Notes under the pieces: generated by a model
Told to the model about the DNA's origin: nothing
The model's database searches: none
What the model saw: only the letters and a program-made list of their open reading frames with translations
Origin: Escherichia coli
GTDB taxonomy: Bacteria; Pseudomonadota; Gammaproteobacteria; Enterobacterales; Enterobacteriaceae
Assembly: GCF_013122565.1 (NCBI RefSeq)
Contig: NZ_CP053258.1
DNA: 64,000 bases
Reading direction: 5' to 3' (one strand)
Position numbers and translations under genes: made by a program
Shown here: positions 28,964 to 29,105 of the stretch, one piece after another
Numbering within the stretch: the stretch's first letter is position 1
How the letters are laid out: every line of letters begins with the position of its first letter

Positions 28964-29105
28964 AGTGGCACTGCCAATTATGTTGTGTAGGGATAATGAC
29001 AATGAATGGTTAACTAAATGTTATGTATTGGCAACATTTATGTGAGTTTTAATTGGGGAACTGTGAACCAGAGGTCAGATAAGCGAAGAATTGGTAGGGC
29101 CAATC
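28964..29105 (-). promoter_or_regulatory. lldP promoter region with two LldR-operator-like palindromes
   Basis: AATTGG-N5-CCAAT type palindromes at about 28964-28979 (AGTGGCACTGCCAATT) and 29089-29105 (AATTGGTAGGGCCAATC), centres ~126 bp apart. Confidence 0.5.

Follow-up and report, generated by a model that had tools for sequence, protein, structure and literature searches.

The window analysed here, a 64-kb stretch of Escherichia coli DNA, carries the lactate operon lldPRD on its minus strand, with genes for an L-lactate permease, the regulator LldR and an L-lactate dehydrogenase. Upstream of lldP lies a gene for a trimeric autotransporter adhesin of the UpaG/EhaG/SadA type, followed by a sadB-like gene and by yibL. 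The intergenic region between the adhesin gene and lldP holds two 17-bp inverted repeats (O1, distal to lldP, and O2, proximal to it), an ArcA site, an intrinsic terminator and two REP-type elements (Table 1).

The lldP open reading frame called by the program starts 27 nt upstream of the annotated gene (28891-28917) and would encode 560 rather than 551 amino acids; the annotated ATG at 28890 is the conserved start and is preceded by a conserved GGAGAC Shine-Dalgarno sequence. The LldP protein is 100% identical to that of two other Escherichia loci (L003 and L004). At the nucleotide level, lldPRD of the window (25272-28917) reaches at most 98.4% identity to any of 5426 complete E. coli genomes, with 98.0% to K-12 and 96.0% to strain C4, the latter providing the best match for the intergenic region (96.8%). 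Judging from these identities, the locus looks like a mosaic, or like a lineage that is not represented among the complete genomes.

Table 1. Features of the lldPRD locus. Positions refer to the window except where a locus name precedes them.
Feature	Position	Strand	Remarks
lldD, L-lactate dehydrogenase	25272..26462	-	ORF; annotated in matching E. coli records
lldR, GntR/FCD regulator, 258 aa	26459..27235	-	Pfam GntR and FCD
lldP, L-lactate permease, 551 aa	27235..28890	-	Annotated in matching E. coli records
LldR operator O2 (proximal), predicted	28963..28979	-	+ strand AAGTGGCACTGCCAATT; lldP-sense strand AATTGGCAGTGCCACTT
lldPRD transcription start (+1), inferred	29000	-	Derived from the ArcA site, -49..-7 at 29049..29007
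ArcA-P site, three direct repeats overlapping the core promoter	29007..29049	+	-49..-7; 42/43 identical to TGGTTAACTAAATGTTATGTATTGGCAACATTGATGTGAGTTT
-35-like hexamer TTGCCA, inferred	29029..29034	-	TTGC nearly invariant in 80 species
LldR operator O1 (distal), predicted	29089..29105	-	+ strand AATTGGTAGGGCCAATC; lldP-sense strand GATTGGCCCTACCAATT
Intrinsic terminator after adhesin gene	29120..29157	-	Stem-loop 29157-29128, T-tract 29127-29120
RF02055 matches	29064-29165 (window); L017:7722-7828; L072:7721-7828	+ (window); - (L017, L072)	Strand opposite lldP
Two REP-type elements	29176..29300 (about 29176-29216 and 29244-29300)	-	Weak naRNA4 (REP-derived) matches, inverted repeat I1
Trimeric autotransporter adhesin, UpaG/EhaG/SadA type, 1299 aa	29302..33201	-	Pfam ESPR, YadA_head, YadA_stalk, YadA_anchor
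sadB-like gene upstream of adhesin, 233 aa, probably SadB-like lipoprotein	33245..33946	-	70% identical to DUF3251-annotated protein of strain C4
yibL, conserved left neighbour	34455..34817	-	Pfam DUF2810; 100% identical to K-12 YibL

The palindrome pair aligns with the LldR operators of K-12

Each of the two boxes departs by a single mismatch from the pattern AATTGG-N5-CCAATT, and their centres lie 126 bp apart (29097 minus 28971); the coordinates and the spacing of about 126 bp given for them in the original prediction proved exact. When up to one mismatch was allowed, O1 and O2 were the sole two matches in the 64 kb, as compared to 0.35 expected from shuffled sequences. Two or more such matches anywhere in the window occurred in 3 of 100 shuffles, and by our own arithmetic about 3×10−4 chance pairs would be expected at a distance of 150 bp or less. 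Allowing two mismatches removes the enrichment (4 matches as compared to 4.9 expected), so that the statistical case is carried by the closeness of the two boxes to the pattern, by their occurrence as a pair and by where they lie.

Aligning the window with K-12 placed both palindromes on the mapped LldR operators of that strain, a check that had been named beforehand. O2 is identical to the K-12 box AATTGGCAGTGCCACTT at 17/17 positions and O1 to the box AATTGGCCCTACCAATT at 16/17, the one difference being the outermost base of O1 (position 29105), which is G in the window versus A in K-12. The K-12 boxes are likewise spaced by 126 bp, and near-identity extends from O1 through to the lldP start codon when the window is aligned with K-12 and E. 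coli strain C4. Since LldR of the window is identical to K-12 LldR at 258/258 residues, the biochemistry worked out in K-12 should transfer directly to the window.

Both AATTGGCCCTACCAATT and AATTGGCAGTGCCACTT are given as LldR boxes of the lldP promoter in Table 1 of Anzai et al. 2023, and the listed K-12 boxes are said there to agree with the sites of Aguilera 2008 (PMC10272880). By LldR gSELEX the lldP promoter was by far the strongest LldR target, with an intensity of 62.9 and the next listed target at 13.8, and an lldP reporter was no longer induced by lactate when lldR was mutated (PMC10272880). Agreement of the K-12 boxes with the MEME-derived LldR consensus AAnTGGTCnGACCAnTT is moderate (12/14 and 10/14); in the window this consensus has three mismatches to O1 and more than three to O2. 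As a search pattern it performed poorly, retrieving only O1 (at three mismatches) and one chance match.

We therefore consider it very probable (roughly 0.93), on the basis of these sequence comparisons, that the palindrome pair represents the O1/O2 operators of the lldPRD promoter, predicted to be bound by LldR. This pair is already known from K-12, and the window adds a single outer-base variant only. A reader who is given nothing but the sequence can recognise a textbook two-operator promoter; nothing new is learned about LldR.

Architecture of the lldP promoter

The operator sequences were taken from Anzai et al. 2023, and their positions relative to the transcription start were reconstructed by way of the ArcA site of Park et al. 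2013; a search of further literature found no numeric positions for O1 and O2. In supplementary tables S3/S4 and the site-position table of Park et al. 2013, the ChIP-defined lldP ArcA site is TGGTTAACTAAATGTTATGTATTGGCAACATTGATGTGAGTTT, with three direct repeats at -49 to -7 (PMC3798270). The direct repeats of this site are spaced by 11 bp and overlap the core promoter, as multi-repeat ArcA-P sites do, and the site is strongly conserved in a comparison of 80 species. With the ArcA site at -49..-7 the transcription start falls at 29000, and therefore O1 lies at -105..-89, O2 at +22..+38 and the lldP ATG at +111. On this numbering the centres are -97 for O1 and +30 for O2, the latter within the transcribed lldP leader; the boxes flank the lldP promoter, as had been claimed, with the start between them. 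The operator positions of Aguilera 2008 reportedly agree with these values of about -97 and about +30. The reconstruction also agrees with a description of the O1-O2 DNA as running from -80 to +1 and holding the ArcA operator together with the -35 and -10 elements (PMC8689689).

A scan for consensus promoters returned no sigma-70 match at the lldP promoter, and the -10 region is weak, which fits a promoter that depends on activation by LldR at O1.

One further conserved element was seen between O1 and the ArcA site. The sequence GGTTCACA at 29062-29069 (minus strand, -69..-62) is nearly invariant in the 80 species, and no factor is assigned to it in the literature sources. Its plus-strand reading is TGTGAA, and the distance to the TGTGA in the third repeat of the ArcA site is 21-22 bp, so that a fourth repeat of that site is conceivable. 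A CRP half-site was also considered for the conserved TTCACA (29062-29067) and rejected, its spacing to any TGTGA-like partner being wrong.

Operator spacing is conserved across Enterobacteriaceae

Using LldP as query and one genome per species, we collected 80 loci from about 25 genera of Enterobacteriaceae. Both boxes are found upstream of lldP in all of them (80/80), and in both operators box positions 4-6 (TGG) and 12-14 (CCA) are invariant in every species. The start-to-start distance between O1 and O2 is 126 bp in 56 species, 125 bp in 20, 124 bp in two, and 127 and 123 bp in one each, so that 76/80 species have 125-126 bp (mean 125.7, sd 0.6 bp). Much less constant is the distance from O2 to the ATG, at 57-94 bp (sd 9.2); Cedecea and Buttiauxella have the entire promoter shifted 30 bp towards the ATG, with a spacing of 125 bp retained. 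Sequence conservation among the 80 species is poor over the first ~50 nt past O1. The fixed length of the O1-O2 segment despite this drift points to a constraint on length and not on sequence alone. Such a constraint is what a same-face arrangement of the operators needs, as 126 bp at 10.5 bp per turn correspond to 12.0 helical turns; alternatively, it could be the geometry needed for activation from O1, and not looping, that keeps the length constant. The maintenance of O1 and O2 at 125-126 bp over about 25 genera is comparative support for the phasing requirement that engineers of lactate biosensors have met empirically.

The outermost position of O1, where the window differs from K-12, is weakly constrained (A in 58 species, T in 13, C in five and G in four). 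Being free to vary among species, this position is unlikely to make the G of the window a change of large effect.

The right half of O2 is imperfect (CCACTT versus CCAATT), and the deviating C at box position 15 is itself conserved, in 58/80 species. The conservation of this half-site suggests that there may be selection for a weaker proximal operator, and it is compatible with O2 being the weaker, lactate-responsive site.

PdhR as a possible additional input at O1

The boxes could also be read as primarily PdhR operators, which would place lactate oxidation under pyruvate-responsive repression and leave LldR in a secondary role. The K-12 O1 matches the PdhR box AATTGGTnnnACCAATT at 13/14 positions, PdhR gSELEX gave a peak over it, and mutation of pdhR raises lldPRD mRNA 3.3-fold (PMC7660256). 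By our own count the O1 of the window matches the same box at 12/14. However, it is O1 alone that is listed as a PdhR box, and box position 7 of O1 gives GGC in 61/80 species, not the GGT preferred by PdhR; in addition, the lldP promoter is the top LldR gSELEX target and its lactate induction is lost when lldR is mutated (PMC10272880). A PdhR-first reading of the pair is thus quite improbable, and PdhR would be an additional input rather than an alternative to LldR.

Proposed mechanism of LldR control

The looping model, in which LldR acts as both repressor and activator, was described in K-12 work (PMC5412874, PMC8689689). On this model, LldR, a GntR/FadR-type protein encoded by the second gene of the operon, would bind each 17-bp inverted repeat as a dimer, and O1 and O2, some 12 helical turns apart, would present these dimers on the same face of the DNA. 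Without lactate, contacts between LldR at O1 and LldR at O2 would throw the promoter into a loop and so repress it. L-lactate would lift the repression exerted through O2, and LldR at O1 would activate a promoter whose -10 is intrinsically weak. When 10 bp were deleted from the DNA separating O2 and the -10, induction was lost (PMC8689689). Phosphorylated ArcA, bound to the three-repeat site between the operators, would occlude the core promoter and shut down the operon in anoxia, and O1, as in K-12, could in addition be bound by the LldR paralogue PdhR, a pyruvate sensor.

For the window, the identity of the sites with those of K-12, their position, spacing and deep conservation, and the identity of the regulator were computed directly. 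The spacing is the one expected for the two-operator arrangement of LldR, as the original prediction had proposed, and matches that of K-12. Binding, looping and the dual role of LldR are what we infer from the K-12 experiments.

A variable adhesin cassette ends next to O1

The adhesin gene is followed, 145 nt past its stop codon, by a hairpin of 13 pairs with a 4-nt loop and a TTTTCTTC tail (dG -20.9 kcal/mol, z = -4.8), which has the features of a strong Rho-independent terminator. Measured from O1, the base of the stem is 22 bp away, the end of the T-tract 14 bp and the loop about 37 bp, so that the distance of "about 35 bp" originally given between operator and hairpin is acceptable. The two REP elements sit between the adhesin stop codon (29302) and this terminator, and K-12 keeps only the one proximal to lldP. 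A hairpin of the same type stands 3' of the adhesin gene in two Citrobacter loci (L017 and L072) and in Escherichia sp. E1V33 (L003).

Records of E. coli annotate upaG, ehaG or a YadA-like gene at the adhesin position, and EhaG, UpaG and Salmonella SadA are described as positional orthologues (PMC7247748), to which the adhesin of the window can be added. The 3' end of the adhesin gene lies beside lldP in 3614/5426 complete E. coli genomes, about two thirds. The 233-aa product of the sadB-like gene had no Pfam match at E ≤ 1e-3.

The adhesin itself differs considerably between loci. The C-terminal ~1.65 kb of the gene match other Escherichia loci at 80-84% of nucleotides, no nucleotide match was found among these loci for the N-terminal ~2.2 kb encoding the passenger, and the protein is shorter in the window than in strain C4 (1299 versus 1821 aa). 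As far as these alignments indicate, the passenger is highly variable between lineages.

In the 80-locus survey, the sadB-like gene and the adhesin gene are present in Escherichia (L002-L005), Citrobacter braakii, C. youngae and E. wuhouensis, and absent from most other genera, from K-12 and from Escherichia sp. MOD1-EC7003. In most genera, including the subspecies arizonae and diarizonae of S. enterica, yibL abuts lldP; S. enterica subsp. enterica is not represented in the survey. The unoccupied Salmonella and Citrobacter examples that we read carry yibL's own terminator, of the type CCGGGC...GCCCGG, 15-30 bp from O1. Occupied loci, those of Escherichia, C. braakii, C. youngae and E. wuhouensis, have a hairpin past the adhesin gene and shortly before O1; it is of the type GGCAAT...ATTGCC-TTTT in Escherichia and the two Citrobacter species, and a different terminator hairpin is found in E. 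wuhouensis. The entire spacer between yibL and O1 differs between occupied and unoccupied sites. Because the hairpin accompanies the adhesin gene and the spacer differs as a whole, the hairpin in Escherichia and Citrobacter belongs to the cassette. That the cassette is ancestral to all Enterobacteriaceae, an assumption that came from the sadBA genes of Salmonella, was dropped, as most genera among the 80 species have yibL directly beside lldP.

K-12 lacks the segment corresponding to about 29243-34441 of the window (about 5.2 kb), comprising the yibL terminator, the sadB-like gene, the adhesin gene and the distal REP element, and it keeps the proximal REP element and the hairpin; the indel boundary is therefore near 29243, at a distance of 138 bp from O1. 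The K-12 junction (L001 3989-4010) is found 12 nt beyond the stop codon of yibL, with ~2 nt of microhomology (CT). In MOD1-EC7003 (L006) there is an apparent remnant of this hairpin, different from what K-12 has kept. Retention of the cassette terminator or of a remnant in these two strains points to loss and not to an unoccupied site, and K-12 and MOD1-EC7003 are best read, from the alignments, as secondary deletions. The hairpin known as the "yibL terminator" of K-12 would then appear to be a relic of a deleted UpaG/EhaG cassette.

E1V33 (L003:7460-7790) and MOD1-EC7003 (L006:7520-7790) carry ~200 bp of extra DNA between O1 and the hairpin or its remnant. This DNA is absent from the window and from K-12 and is partly similar between the two strains; that of E1V33 contains the inverted-repeat motifs ccctctccccaaagggg...cccctttggggagaggg. 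Its presence there indicates that the short spacer beside O1 tolerates insertions, with the operator left undisturbed.

These observations bear on the proposal that an inserted island ends very close to lld regulatory DNA. Presence and absence of the cassette at a fixed yibL-lldP site are polymorphic, as for an island, and in comparison with the genera in which yibL abuts lldP the variable segment does extend to within ~15-30 bp of O1. Against K-12, on the other hand, the indel ends 138 bp from O1. The adhesin gene is not strain-specific, and its GC content (0.50-0.56) is host-like, as in the flanks; the AT-rich part is the sadB-like gene with ~500 bp upstream of it (33245-34455, GC 0.31-0.41). 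The atypical composition and mobility genes of a horizontal island were not found: among the long open reading frames (at least 80 aa) of assigned identity between yibL and lldP there are only the sadB-like gene and the adhesin gene, neither of them mobility-like, and the adhesin GC is that of the host. Once so corrected the proposal holds in the main, and "variable cassette at a fixed site" fits the locus better than "inserted island".

The operator-terminator junction and the STnc380 family

The Rfam family RF02055 (STnc380) offers a different explanation for the conserved palindrome, namely that O1 and the terminator hairpin are helices of an antisense sRNA transcribed from the plus strand and that the palindrome is conserved for RNA structure. 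The RF02055 consensus has AAAAUUGGUAGGGCCAAUU folded into a 7-bp stem ahead of a GGCAAUGG...CCAUUGCC hairpin, and the model matches the adhesin-lldP spacers of C. braakii at 108.7 bits and C. youngae at 101.8 bits, covering in the adhesin-occupied loci L017 and L072 the hairpin described above. It also matches the window, at 22.4 bits, which is far under the gathering score of 60.

O1 is equally conserved in more than 60 species without the adhesin gene, and in nine adhesin-less spacers that we read there is no intact hairpin of the RF02055 type outside Escherichia. Loci L007 and L019 give no RF02055 match. The core pairs of the proposed stem are invariant, with no compensatory change, the outer pair is complementary in only 43/80 species, and the pair 7-11 is C/A in 60/80. 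On the plus strand no U-run follows the hairpin. A literature search for STnc380 retrieved STnc3800 only and no STnc380 paper. An RNA origin of the palindrome therefore seems highly improbable. Judged from the alignments, STnc380 is most likely the operator-plus-terminator junction modelled as RNA on the opposite strand, and the family may deserve curation.

Even less credible is a chance origin of the palindromes in an AT-rich intergenic region: compatible as it is with the lack of enrichment at two mismatches (4 against 4.9), it is refuted by the recurrence of the boxes in 80 species at constant spacing and by their 16/17 (O1) and 17/17 (O2) match to experimentally bound K-12 sites, quite apart from the two matches at up to one mismatch, for 0.35 expected, lying 126 bp apart upstream of lldP.

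Discussion

The O1/O2 pair is best explained by LldR operators, and the variability of the neighbouring DNA invites a broader speculation, which we regard as rather unlikely as a whole. The stretch between the yibL stop codon and O1 might be a conserved swap site, where recombination would bring in, replace and remove cassettes made up of a sadB-like gene, an adhesin gene and their own GGCAAT-type terminator; the lldP promoter would stay in place as the right-hand arm. With only 14 bp between the end of the cassette terminator and O1, adhesin transcription could, if this were true, become coupled to the control of the lactate operon by read-through or by loss of the terminator. A corollary would be that STnc380 is an operator-plus-terminator junction read on the wrong strand and not an sRNA.

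RF02055 is itself one of the systems comparable to the junction in the window: the family consensus takes in an O1-type box and the hairpin of an adhesin terminator, on the opposite strand from lldP. The two differ in that the Escherichia hairpin (GGGCAATTC...GAATTGCCC) and spacer are unlike the Citrobacter type.

Among characterised promoters, lldPRD of K-12 is the closest counterpart. It shares with the window the operon, the regulator (258/258), the 126-bp spacing, O2, the ArcA site (42/43) and the leader. It differs in the outermost base of O1, where the window has G instead of A, and in the loss of the sadB-like gene and the trimeric autotransporter adhesin gene, which in the window lie upstream of the shared hairpin and REP element.

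The PdhR boxes of the pdhR-aceEF-lpd, ndh and cyoA promoters (AATTGGTnnnACCAATT) resemble the lldP operators in being 17-bp inverted repeats with a TGG...CCA core, read by a paralogous GntR regulator of the FadR subfamily that binds O1 of K-12 (PMC7660256). In contrast, O2 is not listed as a PdhR box, and the effector of PdhR is pyruvate and not lactate.

More generally, the arrangement recalls lac O1/O2/O3, gal OE/OI and deo, in which two operators on the same face bracket a promoter, one of them downstream of the start, and in which repression depends on spacing, as has been reported for LldR (PMC8689689). Unlike these systems, lldPRD is controlled by a member of the GntR/FadR family rather than of LacI/GalR, and with inducer present its distal site also serves for activation (PMC5412874).
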